This document shows positions 3,735-57,518 of a DNA stretch of 64,000 bases, one piece after another. The DNA lies in assembly GCA_030679895.1 (NCBI GenBank), contig JAUXSN010000047.1, positions 65,328 through 129,327 of the forward strand, given 5' to 3'. The notes under the pieces are model-generated. The model made no database searches, was not told where the DNA came from, and saw only the letters and a list, made by a program, of their open reading frames with translations. Both the position numbers and the translations under genes were made by a program. The stretch comes from Candidatus Moraniibacteriota bacterium. GTDB taxonomy: Bacteria > Patescibacteriota > Minisyncoccia > Moranbacterales > UBA11712. How positions within the stretch are numbered: position 1 is the stretch's first letter; the number at the start of each line of letters is the position of its first letter.

Positions 3735-5873
3735 CTACGATTTCAGAAACATCCTCGCCACTCTCAACTCTTCGTATGAAAATTCATCACCGAGGATTTC
3801 GCGGACGGGCGACAGGGCTGATCCGCCGGATTTTTGGAAGGCGCGCGCTATTTTTTCCATTTTCTTGGCCGGTGGACGCAAATAGTTGATATTGATTTCT
3901 TCTCCGGCACTGGTCAGCTTTTCGATATGCGATGTTATTGTCCCGGGAGTCATGCCTCTCGCTTTCGCCATTTTTTCAATGGACATTTTTTGCTGAACGA
4001 GTTTTTTGGTTTCCTCGTAGGTTGATCCCGCGCGGATCGCTCGGCGCGCCGTGGCTGGTTTTCCCGCCGGAATATTTTTTTCTTCGAGATTATTTTCCTT
4101 GGCATAGGTTCGGATGACCTCCGTGAATATTTTTCCGTATTGCTTCAGTTTTTCCTCGCCTACTCCGCTTATTTTGGAAAAGCTTTCTTCGCTTTGAGGC
4201 AAATACGATGCCATTTGAGTGAGAGCCAAATCGCCGAAGACGACAAAGGGCGGCACTCCTTTTTCGTCCGCTATCTTTTTGCGCAAAAGCCGCAACTGAT
4301 CAAACAATTCTCGATCATAGTCAACTTCAAACGCAGTTCTTTTTCGAATCGCTTCGGCGCCGGATTCGGGCTTAGACAAAAGGATATTTTCCCTATTTTT
4401 GAGAAATTCCTTTCCTCGTTCGCCCAGTCCGAGAACCGGATACTCATCTCCCATTTTTGCGATCAATTTTTTGGAAACCAATTGGCCGATGATATTTCTC
4501 AATTCAACTTTCGAAAAATCGTCCGCAATACCGAATACCGACAATTTTTGATGGCCGCGTTCCGATATTTTTTTATTCTTCGCTCCCGTGAGCACATCGA
4601 TGATATAGCTTGCGCCAAACCGTTCCCCCGTGCGGACAATCGCCGAAATAATTTTTTGGCTGATTACGGTCGCGTCGAATTCAACTTTTGGCGAAAGGCA
4701 AACATCGCACCCGCCGCATTTTTCCGATTCGTACTCCTCGCCGAAATAGGAAAGCAAATGACGGCGGCGGCACGCTGACAACTCGCAGTATTCAACCATC
4801 TGATTGAGTTTCTTGTATGCGTTGTCCCGTTCGCGCTCCTCCTCGATCTGCCGGATAAAAAATTGCTGCTTGATCGTATCCCCGAAAGAATAGAAAAGAA
4901 CGCACCGGCTTGGAAGTCCGTCGCGTCCGGCCCGTCCCGTTTCTTGATAGTATCCTTCAATTGATTTTGGCAAATTATAGTGGACGACCAAGCGCACATC
5001 CGGCTTGTCGATTCCCATCCCGAAAGCGATCGTCGCCACGATGATTCGCGCTTCATCGCGAATGAATTTTTCTTGATTCTTTTTCCGTTTCCCGCTTTCA
5101 AGACCGGCATGATACGCCAAAGCGGAAAAGCCTTCCTCGCGAAGATCCGCCGCCAAATTTTCCGTGTTCTTTCGGGAAAAACAATAGATGATCACTGATT
5201 CGTTTTTGTGCGCTTGTAATATTCCAATCAGCTGGTCATAGGAATCTTTTTTGGGAAGCACCGCGTAGGAAAGATTCGGACGATTGAAACTGGAAATGAA
5301 AACCTTCGCTTGCCCAAGTGACAGTTGGCGAATTATATCCTCCCGCACTTTTTCCGTGGCGGTGGCCGTGAGCGCCATCACCGGAACACCCGGAAAAATA
5401 TTTCGGAGTATTTTCAGATTTCTATAATCGGGACGGAAATCGTGGCCCCACTCGCTGATACAATGCGCTTCGTCAATGGCGATCAAGCTTATTTTCAACT
5501 CCGACAAAAAATTTTGAAAGCCGGGGTTCGCCAATCTTTCCGGGGCGGCGTAAAGAATTTTCAGCTCTCCCGTTCTCGCTTCCGTTTGTGTCCGGTCGAT
5601 CTCCGCGGGACTCAAAGTGCTGTTAATAAACGCGGCCGGAATACCATTGGCTTTGAGAGCATCAACCTGGTCTTTCATGAGAGCGATAAGCGGCGACACG
5701 ACCAGCGTCATTCCCGGCATCTTTAGCGCGGGAAGTTGATAGCAAAGCGACTTTCCCCCGCCGGTCGGCATAAGAACAAACGCGTCTTTTCCAAGAAGTG
5801 CCTGGCTGATAATTTCCTCCTGCAAAGGACGAAAACGATCAAAACCGAAACGATTTTTGAGAAGATTTAGCAT
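3735..5873 (-). CDS. recQ: ATP-dependent DNA helicase RecQ
   Basis: DEAH-box helicase motifs (LVVSPLIALMKDQ, DEAHCISEWGHDFR), zinc-binding RQC cysteines, a C-terminal HRDC-like region. Length 712 aa. Confidence 0.9.
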   Translation of the reverse strand: MLNLLKNRFGFDRFRPLQEEIISQALLGKDAFVLMPTGGGKSLCYQLPALKMPGMTLVVSPLIALMKDQVDALKANGIPAAFINSTLSPAEIDRTQTEARTGELKILYAAPERLANPGFQNFLSELKISLIAIDEAHCISEWGHDFRPDYRNLKILRNIFPGVPVMALTATATEKVREDIIRQLSLGQAKVFISSFNRPNLSYAVLPKKDSYDQLIGILQAHKNESVIIYCFSRKNTENLAADLREEGFSALAYHAGLESGKRKKNQEKFIRDEARIIVATIAFGMGIDKPDVRLVVHYNLPKSIEGYYQETGRAGRDGLPSRCVLFYSFGDTIKQQFFIRQIEEERERDNAYKKLNQMVEYCELSACRRRHLLSYFGEEYESEKCGGCDVCLSPKVEFDATVISQKIISAIVRTGERFGASYIIDVLTGAKNKKISERGHQKLSVFGIADDFSKVELRNIIGQLVSKKLIAKMGDEYPVLGLGERGKEFLKNRENILLSKPESGAEAIRKRTAFEVDYDRELFDQLRLLRKKIADEKGVPPFVVFGDLALTQMASYLPQSEESFSKISGVGEEKLKQYGKIFTEVIRTYAKENNLEEKNIPAGKPATARRAIRAGSTYEETKKLVQQKMSIEKMAKARGMTPGTITSHIEKLTSAGEEININYLRPPAKKMEKIARAFQKSGGSALSPVREILGDEFSYEELRVARMFLKS

Positions 5874-5886
5874 AAAAAATCAATTT

Positions 5887-5907
5887 CGCTAAGGTTCAAC
5901 CTTAGCG
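5887..5907. repeat. intergenic palindrome cgctaaggttCaaccttagcg
   Basis: Perfect 10-bp arms between the recQ start and the MFS stop. Related to aaggttcaacctt at 12193-12205. Confidence 0.7.
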
Positions 5908-5999
5908 AAGCGCTATATAATTATTTTCCGCAATTCCATTATACCATCCGCCGCCAGAAACAAAAATGGCTTTTCGCAAGCACCAAAATAATCCGAAAC

Positions 6000-7505
6000 C
6001 TACTCAATCACAATATTTTCTTCCAGCTTATTTTCTTTGTGCACCTTGATACCCAGCGCCGCTACCGCCCCCACAAGAAGAAAAATGGAAGCCACCGCGA
6101 AGACTGTTCCGTAGGCCGCGACTTGGGCTTTGAGGATGACGAGCCCCGCAAACTGTTTCATCACAAAAGGATTTTTGATGTTCACGAAGCTGTTCCGGGC
6201 GACGCTCAAAACATTCGAGTTTGTGGCATTGTTGAGAATAGTCGCGAAGATCGCGATCCCGAAAGCCCCGGCAATATTTCTGACCAAAGCCAAAACCGAG
6301 GAAGCGATGCCTATCTCCGCAGTGGGAACGATTGAAGCGATGATGTTCGTGCGCTGCGCCATTCCAAAACCGATCCCGAAAGCCATGATCGAAAGCGGGA
6401 TAATGATGCTCAAGGGACCGGAACGCGCATCTAAAAAAGAAAAAAGAAAAAGTCCGACCGCGGCGACAAACGTGCTGGCCGCGATGACGTATCGAGGCTG
6501 AATTTTTCCCGTCAGGCTTCCTCCGAGAGGCGCGGCTAAGACTATCATAAAGGCCATGGGCATGAATAAAAAGCCGGTCTGCGTAGCGTCATATCCCAAA
6601 AACATTTGGGCAAAAATGGGAATGAGGAAAACTCCTCCTATCATCCCCATAAATACGATGAAATTGTTGGCTAGCGTGTTCACAAAGGCTCCGATTTTGA
6701 AAAACTTCAAATCAACAATGGGCTCGCTATGATTTTTTTCAATCTGAATAAATATATATCCGAAAATGAGAATGGCCGCGTAAGAAAAAAAGCTATTGAG
6801 AGAAAACCATCCCCATTCCAAGCCTTTGTCGAGAACCAGAACCAGCGCCGAGAGAGCTAAACCCAAAGTGATCGCCCCCCACCAGTCAAATTTCGCTGTC
6901 TTTTTTTCAGAAACGGATTCCTGGATAAAGGCCAAAGCCATAAAAAGGCCGATTATGCCTACTGGCAAATTGACCAAAAAAACGCTGCGCCAGCCAAAAT
7001 TATCAATGAGCGGTCCGCCGATAAGCGGCCCGAAAACGGCCGCCGCCGCGAAAGACGCCGACCAGATACCAAGGGCCTGGGCTCTTTCTTTTCCTTCCCG
7101 GAACGTGACGGCCACAATCGCCATAGCGGTCGGATAATCCGCCGACACCGCGACCGCCTGAACAACCCTAAAGACTATCATCGAGCTGAAATTCCAAGAT
7201 AGGCCCGCCAGGACCGAACCAAAAATAAATATGGAAAAACCTAAGATGTAGATTTTCTTTCTACCGATCGTGTCGCCCAGTTTCCCCCAGATAGGGACAA
7301 AGATAGCATTAGCCAGGATATAGGCGGTGGCAATCCATCCGGCGGATGAAACCGTGATATTGAATTCGCCGATTATTTTCGGCAGAGCCAGATTAACGAT
7401 CGTCTGGTCCAGCCTCCCGAGAAACGTGCCCACGATGACCGTCAGCATGATTAACCAGCGGAAATTGTCAGGATTATCTTTTGCCCTTTTCAGTTTCTTT
7501 AGCAT
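6000..7505 (-). CDS. MFS transporter, DHA2 (EmrB/QacA) family, 14 TM segments
   Basis: 501 aa and highly hydrophobic. DHA2 signature G(x)LaDxxGRKxxyllg. Last gene of a MarR-adaptor-adaptor-MFS operon. Confidence 0.85.
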   Translation of the reverse strand: MLKKLKRAKDNPDNFRWLIMLTVIVGTFLGRLDQTIVNLALPKIIGEFNITVSSAGWIATAYILANAIFVPIWGKLGDTIGRKKIYILGFSIFIFGSVLAGLSWNFSSMIVFRVVQAVAVSADYPTAMAIVAVTFREGKERAQALGIWSASFAAAAVFGPLIGGPLIDNFGWRSVFLVNLPVGIIGLFMALAFIQESVSEKKTAKFDWWGAITLGLALSALVLVLDKGLEWGWFSLNSFFSYAAILIFGYIFIQIEKNHSEPIVDLKFFKIGAFVNTLANNFIVFMGMIGGVFLIPIFAQMFLGYDATQTGFLFMPMAFMIVLAAPLGGSLTGKIQPRYVIAASTFVAAVGLFLFSFLDARSGPLSIIIPLSIMAFGIGFGMAQRTNIIASIVPTAEIGIASSVLALVRNIAGAFGIAIFATILNNATNSNVLSVARNSFVNIKNPFVMKQFAGLVILKAQVAAYGTVFAVASIFLLVGAVAALGIKVHKENKLEENIVIE

Positions 7506-9817: not shown

Positions 9818-10459
9818 CTACAGCATTCCCGTGTATAGTTTTTTATAATAAAAATCAACGTCCCGGATCCACTTGGACGCGCCCCGCCCGGTCTCCCCGG
9901 AACAGCTCCCCCCGCATTTCCAGACAAGCATTTTCCGCGGAGTGTCTATATTTTCAGCGACCAGGTTTTTTATCCGCTTTCCGACAACACTCACCGCCTG
10001 GGATCGGGACTTGAAACAGCTATATCCGGAGGCCGTTGTGTTTTCCCTTCCCCGATAGCCCCAGTAATTGAAACATTCCTTCCCGTTTTTTTTGGGCGTG
10101 CGCTTTCCCCAGTTGCTTTCTTTTTTAGCAATTGCGACCAGAAACGCCGCCACCTTTTTATCCTGCTTGGCGATATAGGGAGCCATTTTTTCAATCGGGT
10201 AATCGGAAACAACTTTGCCGATATTTTTTTCCAGTTTTGTCGGCACCCTCCGTTGGACTTGAGATATCGCTTCCGGATAAACTATATTCTGGCTTTCAAA
10301 GCAAAACGCGATAAAAAACAATGAAAAAGCGATTAAAAAACCAAAAAGAATATCTTCCGGAGTTTTGAGATATTTTTCCGTGATTTTTATTATTTTTTCT
10401 TTTTTATTTCCGCCTTCCTCGTTTCTGGAGGCGGTTCGGACAACTTTCTTTTTTCTCAT
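9818..10459 (-). CDS. membrane-anchored hypothetical protein, possibly lysozyme-like (ESNWG motif)
   Basis: One TM segment (LFGFLIAFSLFFIAFCF). AIAKKESNWGK is reminiscent of a Glu-Ser lytic transglycosylase active site. The match is weak. Confidence 0.4.
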   Translation of the reverse strand: MRKKKVVRTASRNEEGGNKKEKIIKITEKYLKTPEDILFGFLIAFSLFFIAFCFESQNIVYPEAISQVQRRVPTKLEKNIGKVVSDYPIEKMAPYIAKQDKKVAAFLVAIAKKESNWGKRTPKKNGKECFNYWGYRGRENTTASGYSCFKSRSQAVSVVGKRIKNLVAENIDTPRKMLVWKCGGSCSGETGRGASKWIRDVDFYYKKLYTGML

Positions 10460-10667
10460 AATGCTCTTTTTCGACTTTAAAACAGCAAAAAACGGGCTAT
10501 CACCCGTCTTCGTTTCTTTCTTTTTCTGATTAAATTATAGCACACATTTCATCTCGAATCAATCACCTTTTGTTTTCAAGCATTGACATGATTTAGCAAT
10601 TGATAATTGGCTCATTATGCAAAATTAAAATCCCATTTTTGGGGATTTTAATTCCTGCGCGCTCCTT

Positions 10668-11066
10668 TTATTCCGTCGCCGCACCATCGAATTCCGCTTC
10701 GTTGGCTTCAGCCTTTTCTTTGGTCGCGCGGACGATTCCGTCTTTGTGGTGCGCCGGTGAATAAATAGTGTAAAGCTTCAATTCTTCCGTTTCGGAAAGA
10801 TTGACGACATTATGCTGCGCTCCCGCCGGCACGACTATGGCTGATCCGTCGGTGACATCATATTCGTTGCCGTCAATGACGCATTTGCCCTGCCCTTTTT
10901 CAAAGCGGAAAAACTGGTCGTTTTCCGGGTGGACTTCCAAGCCGATTTCTTCTTTGGGCGCGAGATTCATCAGCACTAACTGGCTGTGTTTTCCGGTATA
11001 AAGCACTTTGCGGAAATTGCTGTTTTCCAAAGTGTCTTTTTCGATATTCGCATTGAATCCTTTCAT
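10668..11066 (-). CDS. cupin-domain protein
   Basis: Cupin_2-like motifs (GLEVHPENDQFFRFEKGQG...VVPAGAQHNVVN). Confidence 0.7.
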   Translation of the reverse strand: MKGFNANIEKDTLENSNFRKVLYTGKHSQLVLMNLAPKEEIGLEVHPENDQFFRFEKGQGKCVIDGNEYDVTDGSAIVVPAGAQHNVVNLSETEELKLYTIYSPAHHKDGIVRATKEKAEANEAEFDGAATE

Positions 11067-11196
11067 TATTTTTTTTATTAAAAATTAGCTTCTTAATTGT
11101 ATTACATAAAATAAAAAAAGAAAAATTCATTTCCCGTAAACATCGGCCAGACGCTATCAATGATTCCGCCTAACAACCTCGGATATTAGAAAATAT

Positions 11197-11448
11197 TCAA
11201 GGACAACTTTCTTCCCACGTTCGCAGACATTTCTTTTTTTGTTCGCACCAGCTGTACCCGGCCGGGATGAGGCATCCGTGTTCGTCTTTTTGTCCTCCGA
11301 TGGATTCGGGAGCGTTTTCTTTGTTTTCAGCTGACGGAGCCACGTCCACTGAGCTATTTTTGTCCTCATCGCTTCTCAATTTAACTACAACCGCGGCAGC
11401 GATAAGCAGCAGCGCCAAAACCGCGATAATGATAATTATTTTTTTCAT
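11197..11448 (-). CDS. small secreted Cys-containing protein
   Basis: Signal peptide MKKIIIIIAVLALLLIAAAVVV. The mature part carries four Cys (GCLIPAGYSWCEQKKKCLRTWEESC). Confidence 0.5.
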   Translation of the reverse strand: MKKIIIIIAVLALLLIAAAVVVKLRSDEDKNSSVDVAPSAENKENAPESIGGQKDEHGCLIPAGYSWCEQKKKCLRTWEESCP

Positions 11449-11680
11449 AAGAGCTGATTAAAATTATAGCCTATCAAGACATCGAAGAATGTAGAGATAT
11501 TGCCTATTCTCATTATACAGCATCCCAAAAAAACTTGTCCGCTTGTCATGGCGGGCGTAAAAAAGTCCGCATGCCCGGATTGCATTGTTTTAAGCGCTGT
11601 GCTAAATTGTTTTGACACTTTGAAAGTGTCTGGGTCTATCAAAGAAGCTGGCCGAATGTTTGGAAATCCGGAGGGAAAAA

Positions 11681-11911
11681 ATGGATACTCAAAAAACTTT
11701 GAAAATTTTGTTTGTAGGTTTTGGACACGTCAGCCTTCTCATAAGGGAAGAAGCCCATGAGCACGGAGGGCATCTCGTCGAAACTGAATTTTCACCTGAA
11801 GAGGCGAGGGTACGCCTTTCCGAAAAAAATCACGCTTTCAACCTCTTGTCAAGTACCCCTTTTTTCGCCGGAATTCGAGCAATGAATCTATTTTCTAACA
11901 TCGGATGTTAG
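11681..11911 (+). CDS. small hypothetical protein
   Basis: A GGAGGG Shine-Dalgarno sits 7 nt upstream of ATG 11681 (MDTQKTLKILFVGFGHV...). No homology recognised. Confidence 0.3.
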   Translation: MDTQKTLKILFVGFGHVSLLIREEAHEHGGHLVETEFSPEEARVRLSEKNHAFNLLSSTPFFAGIRAMNLFSNIGC

Positions 11912-12155
11912 GAAGTGGCCAGCCTCAACGGCTTGCGAGTAAAAGTCAACTATTTCATCGACAATTTTCCCAATTTGTGTTCTCCCTGAGCATTTCCAAC
12001 CAACGGTATTTGGCTTTTGCGAAATACACCACAAGAACCTTACTGTCATTTGCCACTGACAACATCTTTTTGAAAAAATGCCTATTATGAATATTATTTT
12101 TCTTTGTTTCCCCGCCGTGGAGAATGTATTTGGTCATACTTATGCTTATCAATTT

Positions 12156-48902: not shown

Positions 48903-48935
48903 AAAAACGCTCCCGCTAAGCGGGAGCGTTTTTTT
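48903..48935. terminator. bidirectional rho-independent terminator between clpP (+) and the 3D-domain gene (-)
   Basis: aaaaacgctcccgc-taa-gcgggagcgttttttt. Confidence 0.8.
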
Positions 48936-49500
48936 ATTCTACAACACTCGCTATCAGATTTCTTCGACCGAAAGCGAAAGCTTCTTTCTTGGTCTGCATA
49001 TAGATATCAAAGTGGTTTTCTTTAATAGCTCCGCCGCGGTCCTCGCAAACATAAGTTCCCATCCCGTCAATTTCGATCTTGGTGCCGAATTTATACTGTC
49101 TGGGGCAAGCAAGCGTCCGGTTCGCCTGGACTCGTTTGCCGCTCGCGGTGATTCCGTCGCTCTTTCCGCATTCATCGGCCGCGGCCGTATAGGCGCTGGC
49201 GTTGGCAATGAAACTTCCGGAAGAAAGCAAACTCATATTTTTTGGCCGATATTTTCCGATGGCTATCAAATCCGCCGATGTGTGCGGAAAATATATAGCC
49301 GCGATAAAGTTATCATTGACGGAAACGATTCCGTCAGCCTTTATCTTCGGCGCCTGGTTTTTGTCTTCGTTCTGGTTATTGTCATTATTTTTTGATATTT
49401 GTTGTGTATTTTGGTTTATAATCTCCGCAGCCTCGGCCTTACCGCTTATCGAAATATTTAAGGCCAAGCTGATAAGAATCGCGCTTGCCAAAATACGCAT
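48934..49500 (-). CDS. secreted 3D-domain (MltA/RlpA-like) protein
   Basis: Signal peptide. C-terminal 3D domain with conserved Asp residues (ASGKRVQANRTLACPRQYKFGTKIEIDGMGTYVCEDRGGAI). Confidence 0.65.
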   Translation of the reverse strand: MRILASAILISLALNISISGKAEAAEIINQNTQQISKNNDNNQNEDKNQAPKIKADGIVSVNDNFIAAIYFPHTSADLIAIGKYRPKNMSLLSSGSFIANASAYTAAADECGKSDGITASGKRVQANRTLACPRQYKFGTKIEIDGMGTYVCEDRGGAIKENHFDIYMQTKKEAFAFGRRNLIASVVE

Positions 49501-52276: not shown

Positions 52277-52645
52277 TTAAAAATTCGTAGAAGATCCTCC
52301 CAACAGGCTGTTGACGGCAACTATAATCACATATCCCGCCAGCCCCACAATCACCCCGATAATCGACCATTGCATTTGTTTTTTTGCTCCACTCACATCT
52401 TTTTTTTCACCCGTCATGCTTCCTCCCATTAAGTACATAGTGCCGCTCAAAATAAAGCTGATTATCGCCAGAAATCCAAAAACACCCAAAATCCATTTTG
52501 TAATATTTGATATAATATCCTTTAGGGATCCGGAAGCAAGGCCGCTGCTGGTGGGAAGGGTGACTCCATCCGCTCTTCCAAAATGCGACAACGCGATAAA
52601 CGCGATGAACAATAATATAATTGATACCGATCGCTTAAATTTCAT
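52277..52645 (-). CDS. VirB2/TrbC-like pilin-fold membrane protein, paralog 1 (122 aa)
   Basis: Signal peptide, hydrophilic segment, TM1 (WILGVFGFLAIISFILSGTMYL), charged loop (GEKKDVSGAKKQMQWS), TM2 (IIGVIVGLAGYVIIVAVN) and tail LLGGSSTNF. Confidence 0.6.
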   Translation of the reverse strand: MKFKRSVSIILLFIAFIALSHFGRADGVTLPTSSGLASGSLKDIISNITKWILGVFGFLAIISFILSGTMYLMGGSMTGEKKDVSGAKKQMQWSIIGVIVGLAGYVIIVAVNSLLGGSSTNF

Positions 52646-52675: not shown

Positions 52676-53053
52676 TCAAAATGTCGTGCTCGAACCACCT
52701 AGCATAGTATTAACCGCGTAAATAACCACATACCCGACCAATCCCACGATTACTCCCGTGATCGACCAGTACATCTGCTGTTTCGCCTTCTTTTGCTGGT
52801 CATCATCCCCGGCCGCTGTCAAATACATAATGCCGCTGATCACGAAACCGATAATCCCAAAAAAGCCAAACAATCCCAATATCCAATAAGTGACATACTT
52901 AATAATGTTATAAATTGTTCCGGCAGGCAGACCCATTGATGAATAATCGGAAGTGCTCCATCCGGTGGCTTCGCTCGCCTTGGCAAACAGGCCCAATGCA
53001 AGAAGCCAGAACGCAACCAAGACATATTTTTTTATGACTTTGTCTGTTTTCAT
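52676..53053 (-). CDS. VirB2/TrbC-like pilin-fold membrane protein, paralog 2 (125 aa)
   Basis: Same architecture. Loop GDDDQQKKAKQQMYWSI. Tail MLGGSSTTF. Confidence 0.6.
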   Translation of the reverse strand: MKTDKVIKKYVLVAFWLLALGLFAKASEATGWSTSDYSSMGLPAGTIYNIIKYVTYWILGLFGFFGIIGFVISGIMYLTAAGDDDQQKKAKQQMYWSITGVIVGLVGYVVIYAVNTMLGGSSTTF

Positions 53054-53167: not shown

Positions 53168-53527
53168 TTAGAATGTAGTGTTAGATCCTCCCAGCAAACT
53201 GGTTACCGCTGTGAGCGCCACTAGGCCCACCAAGCCGACAATAATTCCGGTTATCGAATAATACATCGCTTTTTTGGCTTTTTTTTGCGAATCCTCGTCT
53301 CCGGCCGCCACCAAATACATTATTCCGCTGATCACAAAACCGATAACGGCAAAGAAACCCAAAAGGCCCAGCATCCACATCATAACGCTCTTGATGATAT
53401 TAAATATGCTGCCAGACTGCAAATTTGTCCCGCTTGGAGTTGCAAATTGAGCCATAGCCAGATACGGCAGAAGAGACGCCGTTATCAATCCCGCCCGGAC
53501 TAATATTTTTTTCGTTTTTCTTTTCAT
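53168..53527 (-). CDS. VirB2/TrbC-like pilin-fold membrane protein, paralog 3 (119 aa)
   Basis: Same architecture. Loop GDEDSQKKAKKAMYYSI. Tail LLGGSNTTF. Confidence 0.6.
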   Translation of the reverse strand: MKRKTKKILVRAGLITASLLPYLAMAQFATPSGTNLQSGSIFNIIKSVMMWMLGLLGFFAVIGFVISGIMYLVAAGDEDSQKKAKKAMYYSITGIIVGLVGLVALTAVTSLLGGSNTTF

Positions 53528-53573: not shown

Positions 53574-54266
53574 TTAGCCGCCGATAAGGCTGCTGATCTG
53601 TTTAGCCAGAGCCAAAGAGCCTATGGCAATCGTGATGCCGATGAGCGAATACTTCACTATGTTCTTTCCGGTTTCGAATTTTTTCTGATCCCCGGTCGCT
53701 CCGAACATCGTTATTCCGCCGATCACCAGACTTATAATAGCAAGGAATCCGACAATTGACAAAAGCAGGTTGAGAACATTCGTCGCGATCTGCTTGAGGG
53801 TCGTACCGCCGGTCGCGCTTGTTCCTGTTCCTCCCAAAACAGATTTTATTTCATTATAGAAAGTCGGCGCCGCTATGACAATAGCCAGCCCGCCCAGAGC
53901 GTAAAGCAGCGTCTTTTTGCCCCGTTCCATCATCTCTTTGCTTCCGCCGGAAATCATATACATCACCCCGCCAATGATGATAAAGATAACGGCGATCGTC
54001 CCGGCGATCCCTCGCAAATAGCTCATTATGCTGCCCAATACTCCTTCGATGGTATCGTAGCTGAGCGGATTTGACAGGGACACGTTGGCGGCACCGGCCA
54101 AATTGGTATCAAGAGTGAAGAAAACCGACACAGACAGAAAAAAGATGACCGAAAGCGAAGAAATTGAGATTAATTTTTTCATTTTGGTTTTTGGGTAAAT
54201 TATTATAAGGCTAGACATTTGAGAGCGTTTGCTAACAGGCGGAATTTTGATGGACCAAAGAAACAA
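53574..54266 (-). CDS. tandem-duplicated pilin-fold membrane protein (two TM-loop-TM units, 230 aa)
   Basis: Two consecutive units (…IIIGGVMYMISGGSKEMMERGKKTLLYALGGLAIV… and …IISLVIGGITMFGATGDQKKFETGKNIVKYSLIGITIA…). Internal LGGTGTSATGG linker. Start ambiguous between M1 (54266) and M29 (54182). Confidence 0.55.
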   Translation of the reverse strand: MFLWSIKIPPVSKRSQMSSLIIIYPKTKMKKLISISSLSVIFFLSVSVFFTLDTNLAGAANVSLSNPLSYDTIEGVLGSIMSYLRGIAGTIAVIFIIIGGVMYMISGGSKEMMERGKKTLLYALGGLAIVIAAPTFYNEIKSVLGGTGTSATGGTTLKQIATNVLNLLLSIVGFLAIISLVIGGITMFGATGDQKKFETGKNIVKYSLIGITIAIGSLALAKQISSLIGG

Positions 54267-55034
54267 CTAGGGCTCCAATTGATCCTGATGCGCATTTAAT
54301 AGCTTTCTCAAGCACTCCTTATCGTTTGAGATAAATATTTGACCATAAAACATTGACCAATCTACCGAAAATGTTTTTCCGGAATCAGATTTTAAGTTTG
54401 CAAAACGGATAGTTGATGAATTTAGGCCGTTCGACATTTCAAACTTGGTTTCGTTAAAATTCGGGGATTGCGAAAAGGATTCGCCCGGAAAAAATAAAGG
54501 GGAAAGATCTTGAAACATTTTGTTTTCCCATTTTTTCACATTTTCTGTCAATGGATCAACTGAATTTACATAGCTTTTCAAATCCTGATCTTTGTTGACT
54601 TCAAAAATCAGTCCCGCTGCTGACACGGAAGGATCTGAAGAACAATTAAAAAGCGCATACTCCAGCTTATCGCTTAGCTGCAGAACCGGCTCGTCTATCT
54701 TCAAACCGCTCGATTGCAAAAAGGTCCGGAAAAGCACGATTTTGCCGGCTGAATCCTTGACTGTGAATTCAGATATTTTTGATTTTTGATTTTTAGCGCT
54801 TTCAATATTGCTCTTTATCTGACGGTTGATGTCTTCAGGCGTAACGGCCTGTTGAGAAATATTATTTGATCCGTTTCCTGTAGCTTGCGGGAGCGTGTTG
54901 TTGATATTTTCATTTGAACTTGGAGGAATACTGGTATTTATCGAGCTCGTATTTTTTGAAAATATAATCTTTAGACTGATCACTATCAGGGGCAAAGAAA
55001 TTACAGCGAGTATAATAATATTTTTTTTCTTCAT
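54267..55034 (-). CDS. secreted Asn/Ser-rich hypothetical protein
   Basis: Signal peptide MKKKNIIILAVISLPLIVISL. Low-complexity N/S-rich region, then a globular part. Embedded in the pilin-like array. Confidence 0.5.
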   Translation of the reverse strand: MKKKNIIILAVISLPLIVISLKIIFSKNTSSINTSIPPSSNENINNTLPQATGNGSNNISQQAVTPEDINRQIKSNIESAKNQKSKISEFTVKDSAGKIVLFRTFLQSSGLKIDEPVLQLSDKLEYALFNCSSDPSVSAAGLIFEVNKDQDLKSYVNSVDPLTENVKKWENKMFQDLSPLFFPGESFSQSPNFNETKFEMSNGLNSSTIRFANLKSDSGKTFSVDWSMFYGQIFISNDKECLRKLLNAHQDQLEP

Positions 55035-55098: not shown

Positions 55099-55914
55099 TC
55101 AGGTGCCGGGTAACCGCATAGTAAAATTCCCATTATTGCTGGCCCATTGCATATAGTTGTTCGTATTCCAAACCTTTGGGTTTTCGCCGGTATTCCCTAA
55201 GTGATAAATGTTTCCGTCATAATAGAAAGCGGCGTGTCTTCCGCCATGCCCATTACTTGATGTCAGTACTGTGCCGTTAACAAGCTGTGACTGGTCAAAG
55301 GGGATTGAATTCTTCTGATGCTCTTCAGTAGATCTTCCCGGATCCCAACCCATCGAATCGATACAAAGTGATTGGATATATTTAGAGCAATCATATCCAT
55401 TTTGGCCATAAACAACATTGGAATATTTTTGTAGAGAATTGGCAATTTTAGATCCATCAGTCGGCATCGGCGTCCTGTTTCCTCCAGCTCCCGCTCCAGC
55501 GCCAGCGCCAGTTGCGAGGGTTGGCGCTACCGTCTGGGTCGTGTCACACGTGAAACTCGACCAGCTTCCGGCTTGCTTGAAGCCTAAAGCGTTCATAACG
55601 GCGTTGACAATAAGCCAGGAACAAAGCAGCAAAACAAGAGCGATGATGGAAGAGGTAAAGGCTTTTTTAGCCTTTTCAATGAGACCTTTGCTGCCGGCCG
55701 AAACCATATAGAGAACTCCCGCGATTGTTATTCCCAAAAGACAAGCCGCCAAAAGAAGTTTGAGAAGAAAATCAAAAATACCTTTGATGCCGAGAACCAA
55801 ATGGCAGAGAGTGCACTCGTCGGTGCAGGGAACCAGGCCATCCGCCAGCACGGATTTTAACGGTATGATCAGCAATAAGAGGATTATTGATAGGAAAAGT
55901 ATCTTTGTTTTCAT
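55099..55914 (-). CDS. pilin-fold N-terminal membrane domain fused to a C-terminal papain-like (CHAP/NlpC-P60-like) domain via a GAGAGAGAG linker
   Basis: Signal peptide, Cys motif PCTDECTLCHL, TM1-loop(KAKKAF)-TM2 as in the paralogs. C-domain carries Cys (NGYDCSKYIQSLC) and His (SNGHGGRHAAFYYDGNIYH) candidates. Confidence 0.55.
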   Translation of the reverse strand: MKTKILFLSIILLLLIIPLKSVLADGLVPCTDECTLCHLVLGIKGIFDFLLKLLLAACLLGITIAGVLYMVSAGSKGLIEKAKKAFTSSIIALVLLLCSWLIVNAVMNALGFKQAGSWSSFTCDTTQTVAPTLATGAGAGAGAGGNRTPMPTDGSKIANSLQKYSNVVYGQNGYDCSKYIQSLCIDSMGWDPGRSTEEHQKNSIPFDQSQLVNGTVLTSSNGHGGRHAAFYYDGNIYHLGNTGENPKVWNTNNYMQWASNNGNFTMRLPGT

Positions 55915-55930: not shown

Positions 55931-57361
55931 CTATTTTTTGATCAGCAAATTCACGCTGTTTTGCGCTTGTTCGATGGCTTTGTTCGGATCGTCATTTTTG
56001 AGCGCAACATTATCGATCATATCGTCAAAAATCTTTTCAACAGCCAGATTGTCAGGCTGCGGCCAGCTCTTGGCGATAAGATTTCCTTCGGCAAAAGCCG
56101 CCATCAGCACGTCGCTTTTTTGCTTTTCGATGAGATCGCGGCGAGCAACCGGTTTTTTTTGGTTTTCCGCGTATTCTTTAGCCGGATCGTAAGCGGCGCT
56201 TTCCGTGGATGAAACCTGGCTAAAAGCAGGAGGCATAGTCAAATATCTTACAAACTTCCAGGCCTCCGCCGTTCTCTCTTCGTTGGTTGCCTGAACATTT
56301 CCGCTGGCTGCCGAACTTGAATCGCTCTGTATTACTTTATTTTTGGAAACCGCGTAGCCCCAATAATTGGCGAAGTTGATATTGAGTCCTTTTCCGCTCT
56401 TGTCCATATTCTGCGGAAGAGTTGATATTCCCAGATTCAGCTTTGGCGCTTTCGCTTGAATCTTGGGAAGCAGCCAGGAATAATTAAGCGTCATAGCCGT
56501 TTGGCCTTCGATAAAACTGTCCACTGAATTGTGCATCAGCGCGTTCCAGCAGTATTCCTTATTGTCCCGGTTGGAAAATTTTGTGTAATAGGAAAGAGCG
56601 GCTTGGCCGGGCGGCACTTGATTCTTGTTAGCCAAAGATTCTTCGGTAAAATCCGCGAAAGCGGCCGCTTTTCTCTTCTCATCATACATTTGAGTTCCGG
56701 CTTGCATCATAATGGCCGTCAAAATATCCGTGGCCCGGTTGATTTTTCCCTCGCCCGCGCCGGCGTCACTCGAAGCCCCCATGGCCGCACCGGAGATAAG
56801 GATATTTCCGAATGAATCAACTTTTGTAATTTTGGTCACGGCTTCATCAAATTCGGCCCACGTGCGGGGGGGAGACGAAATACCGGCTTGATTTAGAAGA
56901 TCCTTATTGGAAAATAAGGCTAAAGAATCAACCGAGAGGGGCAGGGCATAGACTTTGGAGTCTTTCACAAAATCCTGCGAGACAACGTCGACGAACGTAT
57001 CCTGCGCCTGCTTGGCGTTGACAATCTGATCGGGTGCCGGAAATAATTTATCCTGGTGCTTCGCAAGCCACGAATTGTGAATCAAAAAAACATCGGGTCC
57101 GTTGCCAGCCGCCAAAGCGTCCCGCAGATCGTTTTCATAGGAATCAATCGTGAGTTTTTTATATTGAATGTCTTTTATTGCCGGATTTCTTTTTCTATAC
57201 TCGCCAATCGCTTTTGCCATAGTGTCCGAATCATCAAAAAGTCCCCAGACTTCAAGGCTGACTTGCCGGCTGGAAACAGTTGACCGGCAGCCGCAACCGG
57301 AAAGAAGAATCACCGAAGAAAGCAAAAGGAAAGATAACGCGATTGATATTTTTTTATTCAC
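55931..57361 (-). CDS. extracellular solute-binding lipoprotein (ABC transporter SBP, family 1/MalE-like), orphan
   Basis: Lipobox LLSGC. SBP_bac_1-like fold over 476 aa. No permease or ATPase genes adjacent. Confidence 0.75.
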   Translation of the reverse strand: MNKKISIALSFLLLSSVILLSGCGCRSTVSSRQVSLEVWGLFDDSDTMAKAIGEYRKRNPAIKDIQYKKLTIDSYENDLRDALAAGNGPDVFLIHNSWLAKHQDKLFPAPDQIVNAKQAQDTFVDVVSQDFVKDSKVYALPLSVDSLALFSNKDLLNQAGISSPPRTWAEFDEAVTKITKVDSFGNILISGAAMGASSDAGAGEGKINRATDILTAIMMQAGTQMYDEKRKAAAFADFTEESLANKNQVPPGQAALSYYTKFSNRDNKEYCWNALMHNSVDSFIEGQTAMTLNYSWLLPKIQAKAPKLNLGISTLPQNMDKSGKGLNINFANYWGYAVSKNKVIQSDSSSAASGNVQATNEERTAEAWKFVRYLTMPPAFSQVSSTESAAYDPAKEYAENQKKPVARRDLIEKQKSDVLMAAFAEGNLIAKSWPQPDNLAVEKIFDDMIDNVALKNDDPNKAIEQAQNSVNLLIKK

Positions 57362-57480: not shown

Positions 57481-57518
57481 AATAAAATAAAGAGGCGGTT
57501 CCTAAAAAGAACCGCCTC
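57481..57518 (-). terminator. rho-independent terminator downstream of gyrA
   Basis: gaggcggttc-tttttag-gaaccgcctc hairpin followed by a T run on the minus strand. Confidence 0.75.

Follow-up and report, generated by a model that had tools for sequence, protein, structure and literature searches.

A putative type IV secretion pilin joined to an NlpC/P60 peptidase domain in a Moranbacterial gene cassette

In monoderm bacteria, conjugative type IV secretion systems (T4SSs) as a rule include a membrane-anchored NlpC/P60, CHAP or SLT hydrolase, as exemplified by CwlT of ICEBs1, PrgK of pCF10, TraG of pIP501 and Orf14 of Tn916, and pilus biogenesis in Agrobacterium involves the joint action of the VirB2 pilin and a product derived from VirB1. 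Here we describe a 271-aa protein encoded in a 64,000-nucleotide stretch of a Candidatus Moraniibacteriota genome (assembly GCA_030679895.1, contig JAUXSN010000047.1, positions 65,328 to 129,327; the whole stretch is referred to below as the window), in which a T4SS pilin module is joined through a low-complexity linker to a C-terminal peptidase domain, which we call the head. A survey of Patescibacterial T4SSs recorded 441 pilin arrays, an absence of relaxases, and no detectable VirB1 in most genomes with VirB2 (PMC12102498). In S. epibionticum, both the pilin array and the T4SS have proved essential (PMC10633639, PMC12857230), and the role of the T4SS and VirB2-like arrays, essential in the only genetically tractable Patescibacterium, has been called completely unknown (PMC11665869). 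Our favoured interpretation, held with about even confidence, is that the fusion is a wall-cutting enzyme on a T4SS pilin subunit, acting as a pilus-tethered, VirB1-equivalent hydrolase with a cognate partner.

The Patescibacterial VirB2-like arrays, the membrane-anchored NlpC/P60 hydrolases of monoderm T4SSs and the enzymology of NlpC/P60 domains are already known. What appears undescribed so far is the covalent pilin-hydrolase architecture as a family, together with its exchangeable heads and a partner gene that varies with them; our search of the full-text literature found no described fusion of a pilin to an NlpC/P60 domain, and covered open-access papers only, such that this absence is no proof. 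Table S3 of the Patescibacterial survey lists a Nomurabacteria 'VirB2' (KKT24894.1), located two genes after virB4, with PF00877 as the cluster's Pfam family, an entry on which the text does not comment (PMC12102498).

The fusion protein and its two modules

The open reading frame (ORF) and its parts lie as follows, where L-numbers denote loci in related genomes, P-numbers denote homologous proteins, and pLDDT is the predicted local distance difference test score of an AlphaFold2 (AF2) model:

55099 to 55914, minus strand: fusion ORF, ATG start, 271 aa, taken from the ORF list, with Pfam PF18895 and PF00877
55843 to 55914, minus strand: Sec-type signal peptide, residues 1-24 (MKTK, a hydrophobic core, then SVLA before DG), Kyte-Doolittle peak 2.78, basic n-region
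55537 to 55842, minus strand: pilin module, residues 25-126 (PF18895), two hydrophobic segments, 46% identical to the pilin of the L018 VirB4 cluster
55477 to 55536, minus strand: low-complexity linker TQTVAPTLATGAGAGAGAGGN, residues 127-146, AF2 pLDDT below 50 at residues 124-146
55102 to 55476, minus strand: NlpC/P60 papain-like cysteine peptidase domain, residues 147-271 (PF00877, PDB profile, Foldseek)
55387 to 55389, minus strand: codon of the catalytic Cys176 (motif D-C-S), aligned to MepS Cys68, present in 47/47 fusions
55234 to 55236, minus strand: codon of the catalytic His227, aligned to MepS His119, present in 47/47 fusions
55201 to 55203, minus strand: codon of His238, probable third residue of the triad, aligned to MepS His131, His in 24/47 fusions

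An earlier note, made from the DNA letters alone, had proposed a papain-like domain of CHAP or NlpC/P60 type at the C-terminus, and it is the NlpC/P60 part of this proposal that stands. A profile of 20 homologous C-terminal domains matched MepS (E 4.4e-15), Acd24020 (1e-14) and SagA (5.5e-14) in the PDB, as well as two NlpC/P60 hydrolases of Tn916-like conjugative elements (8e-11 and 4e-10; PDB 9ubf and 4hpe), and the single C-terminal sequence matched MepS/Spr at E 1e-4; in that alignment Cys176, His227 and His238 fall on the triad residues Cys68, His119 and His131. The AF2 model of the fusion has a mean pLDDT of 74, with values of ~80-90 in the C-terminal domain; Foldseek comparison of this model to the PDB gave 19 matches at E<=0.001, all of them NlpC/P60 structures (MepS/Spr, Acd24020, SagA, RipA/B and CwlO included), with probability 1.00 and target-normalised TM-scores of 0.6-0.74, in agreement with the papain-like fold. 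The candidate catalytic residues named in the earlier note are likewise conserved, as Cys176 and His227 are invariant across the pilin-NlpC/P60 fusions and Asp175 is retained in 46/47, with G, S, N, A or D at position 238 wherever His is not found. Hidden Markov model (HMM) searches of the single fusion sequence gave a divided answer: PF00877 was matched at E 3.5e-4 with 20.9 bits, just below its gathering score of 23, and the Pfam scan returned no match to CHAP (PF05257) at E<=1. PF00877 is present in the precomputed annotation of homologues P0007-P0011, P0016, P0021, P0023 and P0031. Because the fold, profile and catalytic-residue checks were passed, we assign the C-terminal domain to the NlpC/P60 peptidases (MEROPS C40) and not to CHAP, and on sequence and model it is apparently active, with an intact Cys-His-His triad. 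Word-indexed homology searches with the C-terminal domain, and then with its alignment, returned almost no matches.

The N-terminal part of the protein matches PF18895 (T4SS_pilin) over residues 43-106 (E 1.6e-8, with 34.9 bits where the gathering score is 26.6), and the protein also weakly matches NCBIfam NF045849, the Mbov_0395 pilin-like conjugal transfer protein, at E 0.005, below the cut-off. By hydropathy there are three hydrophobic segments, one resembling a signal peptide, with a cleavage site that we place by the -3/-1 rule, and two transmembrane (TM) helices. The module proceeds from LVPC30-x3-C34TLC37H through TM1 (~43-71), a basic loop (72-86) and TM2 (~87-109) to WSSFTC123DT, and the AF2 model has helices at residues 36-71 and 76-109. 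An acidic segment follows the signal peptide, and the loop holds four K/R and one D/E (+3), from which the positive-inside rule places the loop in the cytoplasm and both termini outside. The pilin module is accordingly predicted to have the VirB2/TraA topology of a two-TM hairpin, with the hydrolase domain, C-terminal to TM2, predicted outside the membrane. The Gly/Ala linker was correctly recognised in the earlier note as the joint between the pilin module and the C-terminal domain; homologues have other Gly-rich sequences of variable length at this position.

The earlier note had treated the Cys cluster as an addition particular to the fusion protein, a view that the relatives overturn. Residues L27-C30 (LVPC), C34-C37 (CTLC) and C123 (FTCDT) are invariant in 19 full-length homologues, and because the cluster occurs in 170 of the 190 relatives retrieved, stand-alone pilins of 138-167 aa included, it is a signature of a pilin subfamily. 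The related claim that the fusion shares its N-terminal module with its neighbours is correct at the level of the family, since all of them match PF18895, but not beyond it: the module is only 27-31% identical to those of its own array neighbours and falls in a separate subfamily, recognisable by LVPC-x(n)-CTLCH and a Cys behind TM2. The module's 46% identity is to a bare pilin of locus L018, whose gene stands downstream of one for a VirB4-type ATPase (PF19044, AAA_10, TraC_F_IV), a few genes away. Many homologues (P0003, P0005, P0010, P0016, P0023, P0031, P0032 and P0037) have a Cys-rich, repeat-like insert of 60-180 aa between the signal peptide and LVPC, on the outer face and ahead of the pilin module, which the window protein does not have. 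Of the two long relatives P0124 (552 aa) and P0097 (1183 aa), one contains the pilin TM region in six repeats and the other has nine matched stretches, including an NlpC/P60 part.

The fusion is real and no artefact of assembly or frameshift, since independent assemblies encode full-length homologues (P0001, 271 aa, at 97% identity; P0002 at 82%; P0004 at 57%; L002 at ~43%). The motifs to which the earlier note drew attention are all present (PCTDECTLCHL at residues 29-39, GAGAGAGAG at 136-144, NGYDCSKYIQ at 172-181 with Cys176, and GHGGRHAAFYYDGNIYH at 222-238 with His227 and His238), and the fusion is, as stated there, the largest ORF of its array, with 271 aa against 122, 125, 119 and 230 aa for its neighbours, all of which match PF18895. 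The implied rarity of a pilin fused directly to a hydrolase did not survive comparison with metagenomes, where the architecture is common: at least 47 of the 190 relatives retrieved are pilin-NlpC/P60 fusions, HMMER found homologues in 230 clusters (50% identity) at E<=1e-30, and ~30 of the best 150 cover both modules. One homologue had already been named 'cell wall-associated NlpC family hydrolase' by JGI. A phage or plasmid origin, including a reading as a holin-endolysin-like protein, was rejected, as tblastn gave 0 matches in 50,697 phage and 72,556 plasmid records.

Exchangeable heads and a downstream gene that tracks them

When the tails of all retrieved proteins were cut after the conserved W..F-T-C-D motif and clustered, at least six head classes were found attached to one and the same pilin module and junction motif, encoded in a slot directly after a gene for a lipoprotein solute-binding protein (SBP); the conserved W..FTCDT(T)Q motif and the linker mark the junction between constant and variable parts. 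The NlpC/P60-type group (n=37) comprises several divergent NlpC/P60 variants and a type defined by motif only, 'HCYS..KHTW' (P0012, P0027 and relatives), which is papain-like by its motif, has no Pfam match, and was detected by the NlpC/P60 HMM only in P0030. The second most common head (n=22) is rich in Cys and has the invariant pattern C-H-x-G-x-G ... A-x-D ... H-x-H-x-S ... C ('SCHYGG..AAD..HxHVS'); by motif it resembles an LAS/M15 zinc peptidase, for which a profile search of the PDB gave only 1lbu, a Zn D-Ala-D-Ala carboxypeptidase, at E 0.28, with no match in Pfam or PHROGs and uninformative fold searches. Its carriers include P0015, P0017, P0025, P0026, P0029 and P0033-P0041, and loci L007, L009-L012, L019, L020 and L023. 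Two further groups are SLT/lysozyme-like (PF01464 at E 5e-9 and 4e-4; SLT_3 at 2e-4), and the remaining tails are of a HELGH metalloprotease type, consist of Cys-rich repeats, or are lacking altogether, as in bare pilins. A single tight clade (L004, L006, L007, L008 and L009, with SBP identities of 71-81%) carries three head types, and we infer that the head is an exchangeable module. Two fusions of the Cys-motif pilin, tandem or closely spaced, are present in some genomes (L041 at 9908-12103; L017; L032), the heads of such pairs being different, for example a HELGH metalloprotease beside a metallopeptidase-like head, or one with an (ST)n-repeat linker.

Pairwise comparison of the SBP, GyrA, pilin module, head and ~250-aa downstream gene product across the window and 12 syntenic cassettes (13 taxa) revealed that the gene after the fusion, of 241-271 aa and present in 13/13 of these cassettes, follows the head. 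Head and downstream gene were correlated (Mantel test with Spearman correlation, rho 0.63, p 1e-4), with rho 0.25 (p 0.04) for SBP and downstream gene, 0.09 (p 0.20) for pilin module and head, and 0.01 (p 0.45) for SBP and head; head type is independent of species relatedness, its correlation with the species proxy being close to zero. The nearest species to the window by GyrA and SBP are those of L003 (94% and 76%) and L005 (88% and 74%), and the window's head and downstream gene are most like those of L001 and L002, whose SBPs are only 62-65% identical. Judged from these sequences, the co-variation has the pattern expected of an enzyme and a cognate binding partner that move as one module, and the 255-aa protein encoded in the window is a candidate for such a partner, an inhibitor or immunity protein of the head. 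It has no significant Pfam, NCBIfam, PHROG or PDB-profile match. Cassettes with a bare pilin, an SLT head (L069) or a Cys-rich head have no such downstream gene, a contrast that is confounded because these cassettes belong to more distant lineages; in L027, which has an SLT-like head, the downstream gap holds a 229-aa ORF with undetected homology to this gene.

Connection to a T4SS and genomic setting

The pilin module of the fusion belongs, by sequence, to the same subfamily as the pilin found inside the VirB4 clusters of related genomes. Loci L013-L025 have a pilin of CTLCH type within such a cluster, sometimes bare and sometimes with a head. This second locus has the order A453, B240, VirB4, C167, Rce1-like protease, D939, E309, CTLCH pilin, F384, and its pilin slot is bare in most genomes and head-bearing in L019, L020, L023 and L032. 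In five further loci (L026, L028, L039, L045 and L056) the SBP, CTLCH-pilin and double-pilin genes are followed directly by B240 and VirB4, and therefore some lineages have the cassette and the T4SS in a single locus. In Moranbacteria the VirB4 cluster retains the gene for the Rce1-like CAAX-type (CPBP) membrane protease, placed a few genes ahead of that for the Cys-motif pilin (L018 at 5533-6201, and also L020, L023-L025 and L046); this protease is a candidate pilin-processing enzyme.

In the window, the fusion is part of a cassette with the minus-strand order gyrA, hairpin, SBP_bac_8 lipoprotein, fusion, 255-aa membrane protein, double pilin, three single pilins, tRNA-Leu and rluA, an order retained in ~35 species-level genomes; the conserved cassette itself comprises the SBP, the fusion, the 255-aa membrane protein and the pilin array. 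The neighbouring features are:

57492 to 57518, minus strand: terminator-like hairpin after gyrA, 12 bp with 7 GC and a T tail, from a consensus scan
55931 to 57361, minus strand: lipoprotein solute-binding protein SBP_bac_8 (PF13416, E 1.7e-19), LSGC lipobox-like start, 16 nt upstream of the fusion
54267 to 55034, minus strand: downstream 255-aa protein, with an N-terminal TM helix, a low-complexity spacer and a ~170-aa outer domain with two invariant Cys
53574 to 54266, minus strand: tandem double pilin, PF18895 in two stretches (E 1.7e-19) and PF04956 TrbC/VirB2 (E 7.7e-14)
53168 to 53527, 52676 to 53053 and 52277 to 52645, minus strand: three single pilins, each with a PF18895 match that exceeds the gathering score (E 1e-10 to 2e-7)

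The hairpin is the likely upstream boundary, as far as sequence can indicate, of an SBP-fusion-pilin transcription unit, of which the SBP gene is probably the first. An SBP gene lies directly upstream of the Cys-motif pilin in ~35 genomes (L001-L012, L015, L026-L030, L035-L062 and L069), and no ABC permease or ATPase gene adjoins the SBP gene of the pilin cassette. The double-pilin gene is retained in the cassette across genomes; its listed TTG start is probably wrong, and an ATG at ~54182 is the likelier one.

The window is otherwise a housekeeping chromosomal stretch with recQ, infB, cca, ddl, nusA, ppa, tig, clpP, gyrA and 13 tRNAs. Its GyrA is 94% identical to that of a Candidatus Moraniibacteriota metagenome-assembled genome (MAG), over a partial GyrA fragment of 250 residues, and the 66 related genome loci are nearly all from Moranbacteria or Parcubacteria. 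The presence of a D-Ala-D-Ala ligase gene indicates that the organism makes its own peptidoglycan, and a 188-aa protein with a 3D domain (PF06725, an MltA/RlpA-like wall-binding or lytic fold), encoded at 48934 to 49500 on the minus strand and 6 kb from the cassette, that the genome has other wall-active proteins. Several MAG records with the Moranbacteria-type pilin module are titled Bdellovibrionales, Micavibrio, Bathyarchaeia or Omnitrophota (L007, L010, L026, L030, L033, L043, L044, L047, L051, L054, L055, L056, L062 and L063), and their labels or binning look wrong; among these, L007, L010, L026, L030, L047, L056 and L062 have the SBP-pilin cassette.

Interpretation and comparison with known systems

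If the fusion is a pilus-tethered hydrolase equivalent to VirB1, it would enter the membrane pool of pilins and either stay at the base of the T4SS or pilus or be built in as a minor subunit. The tethered peptidase would then cut the peptide stems or cross-links of peptidoglycan and open the wall where the apparatus passes, supplying in cis a VirB1-type function that most VirB2-bearing Patescibacteria apparently lack; the 255-aa membrane protein, on the outer face, would most likely bind the head and restrain it beside the cell's own wall, and the wall to be cut may be mainly that of the producer or that of a host as well. Several observations weigh against this reading. To judge from the published work consulted (PMC12102498, PMC12857230), no T4SS pilus has been imaged in any Patescibacterium, and the link to a T4SS in the source genome is indirect, because the 64-kb window contains no VirB4, VirD4 or VirB6 genes. 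A 125-aa globular head on every subunit is probably incompatible with helical packing of the VirB2 type, and incorporation, if any, would therefore be sparse, at the tip or the base. Since some cassettes carry a bare pilin, the head is dispensable to the cassette, and the swapping of heads among close relatives together with a co-varying partner is more typical of the modules of effector-immunity conflict than of a housekeeping role like that of VirB1. The enzyme activity of the head and its substrate are, in addition, predictions from sequence and structural model.

Xanthomonas species have bacteria-killing T4SSs that deliver peptidoglycan hydrolases and are accompanied by immunity proteins, and the fusion may be a comparable polymorphic effector, host-directed or antibacterial, in which the pilin module carries peptidoglycan-degrading heads out on the T4SS filament to breach the wall of a host or prey cell while the 255-aa protein, as an immunity protein, shields the producer's own wall. 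We regard this as a possibility to be entertained tentatively, with the balance of probability clearly against it. It would account for the variety of heads in one syntenic slot (NlpC/P60 variants, the divergent Cys/His type, 'SCHYGG..AAD..HxHVS', SLT-like lysozyme folds, the HELGH metalloprotease and Cys-rich repeats), for the conserved motif and linker at the constant-variable junction, and for heads that are uncorrelated with the species proxies and tracked by the downstream gene; moreover, the Patescibacterial T4SS has no relaxase and is essential for epibiotic growth, and effector delivery by it has been speculated on in reviews (PMC12102498, PMC10633639, PMC11665869). However, a 20-aa tether reaches the cell's own wall only, unless the subunit is extruded. 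Nearly all of the heads are wall hydrolases, which also fits non-orthologous replacement of a VirB1-type function, and no immunity fold can be recognised in the product of the downstream gene. The presence of this gene is also confounded with phylogeny, all 13 carriers being closest relatives, and the Mantel test covers 13 taxa only. With similar reserve we put forward a wider proposition, that Moranbacteria, and probably other Paceibacteria, may decorate the T4SS pilus with exchangeable peptidoglycan-degrading heads, each accompanied by a membrane-anchored cognate protein, of immunity or inhibitor type, and matched to the wall chemistry of the host, as a pilus-borne polymorphic 'drill'.

Two further explanations would detach the enzyme from a pilus, either in its function or by proteolysis. 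The hairpin could be a mere anchor for an ordinary membrane-bound autolysin, an endopeptidase of growth or division with no connection to a pilus or T4SS, as the housekeeping surroundings (gyrA, nusA, tig, clpP, infB and ddl) without T4SS ATPases would suggest, and as would the nearest solved relatives, MepS, CwlO, SagA and RipA, which are growth or division endopeptidases. We consider this improbable, given that the anchor is a bona fide member of PF18895 from a subfamily found inside VirB4 clusters, that the gene always heads a pilin array, with B240 and VirB4 directly after the pilin genes in five of the related loci searched, and that a housekeeping enzyme would not be replaced by unrelated heads or lost among close relatives. 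Alternatively, the protein could be a split pro-protein in which FTC123DT is a processing site, such that cleavage leaves a mature pilin and lets the NlpC/P60 enzyme pass in soluble form into wall or medium, the two halves acting separately. TrbC and VirB2 mature through cleavage at the C-terminus, and VirB1* is released in Agrobacterium; in stand-alone pilins of the fusion's subfamily the chain ends 2-25 residues past the conserved Cys, the junction motif is invariant and the linker disordered, and the VirB4 cluster of relatives encodes the Rce1-like protease. Nevertheless, the conserved Cys could equally form a disulfide or serve as a metal ligand with the N-terminal CxxxCxxC cluster, and the cassette in the window has no protease gene, so that we judge such processing very unlikely.

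These findings will be of interest to specialists in T4SSs and in the candidate phyla radiation (CPR), as they bear on the role of an essential secretion system. A hydrolase-bearing pilin would fill the VirB1 gap noted in pilin-bearing genomes (PMC12102498), and the swapping of heads with a co-varying partner offers a testable idea of how ultrasmall epibionts cross their own walls or those of their hosts. If the 'drill' reading is true, it would provide a concrete job for the relaxase-less, essential Patescibacterial T4SS and a route for epibionts through host walls. The signature LVPC..CTLCH .. W..FTCDT can be used to mine further heads, and constructs for biochemistry are now defined, namely the head, a C176A head and the ectodomain of the partner.

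The closest described relatives of the cassette are the VirB2-like arrays of Patescibacteria (S. epibionticum ML1; PMC12102498, PMC10633639), with which it shares PF18895, a tandem series of divergent small two-TM pilins and a monoderm, ultrasmall bacterium, and, in relatives, association with an MPF-FATA-like VirB4 system. The arrays described consist of bare pilins, whereas here the first pilin has a hydrolase head and belongs to the Cys-motif subfamily (LVPC..CTLCH..C), and the array, unlike those described, is located away from virB4, beside gyrA and behind a lipoprotein SBP. The hydrolases of monoderm T4SSs, including the NlpC/P60 proteins of Clostridioides difficile conjugative transposons (PDB 4hpe and 9ubf), are like the fusion in being membrane-anchored extracytoplasmic enzymes encoded with T4SS components, but they are tethered by a plain N-terminal TM helix or a lipobox instead of a pilin module, they usually have two domains, and we know of no cognate co-varying partner gene for them. 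MepS/Spr, SagA, CwlO, RipA and Acd24020 are the best matches in sequence and structure and have the Cys-His-His triad at identical positions; these differ in being lipoproteins or secreted enzymes of growth and division, with ~20-24% identity, no pilin module and unrelated regulation (NlpI-Prc, IseA, FtsEX).

Polymorphic effector-immunity systems (Tae/Tai of the type VI secretion system, X-Tfe/X-Tfi of the Xanthomonas-type X-T4SS, contact-dependent inhibition and Rhs) share with the cassette a constant N-terminal part, a junction motif, swapped heads and an adjacent small gene that co-varies. The putative delivery part here is a membrane pilin rather than a soluble or filamentous toxin stalk, next to a gene that would only be a candidate for an immunity function, and with heads that are only wall-active or unassigned. 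Agrobacterium has VirB1* and VirB2 as separate polypeptides; its VirB1 is a transglycosylase of the SLT type, and the part of it that promotes the pilus, VirB1*, is non-catalytic, whereas the head here is of the NlpC/P60 type; the fusion would thus represent a natural 'Rosetta-stone' version of this pairing, uniting the functions of VirB2 and VirB1 in one polypeptide.

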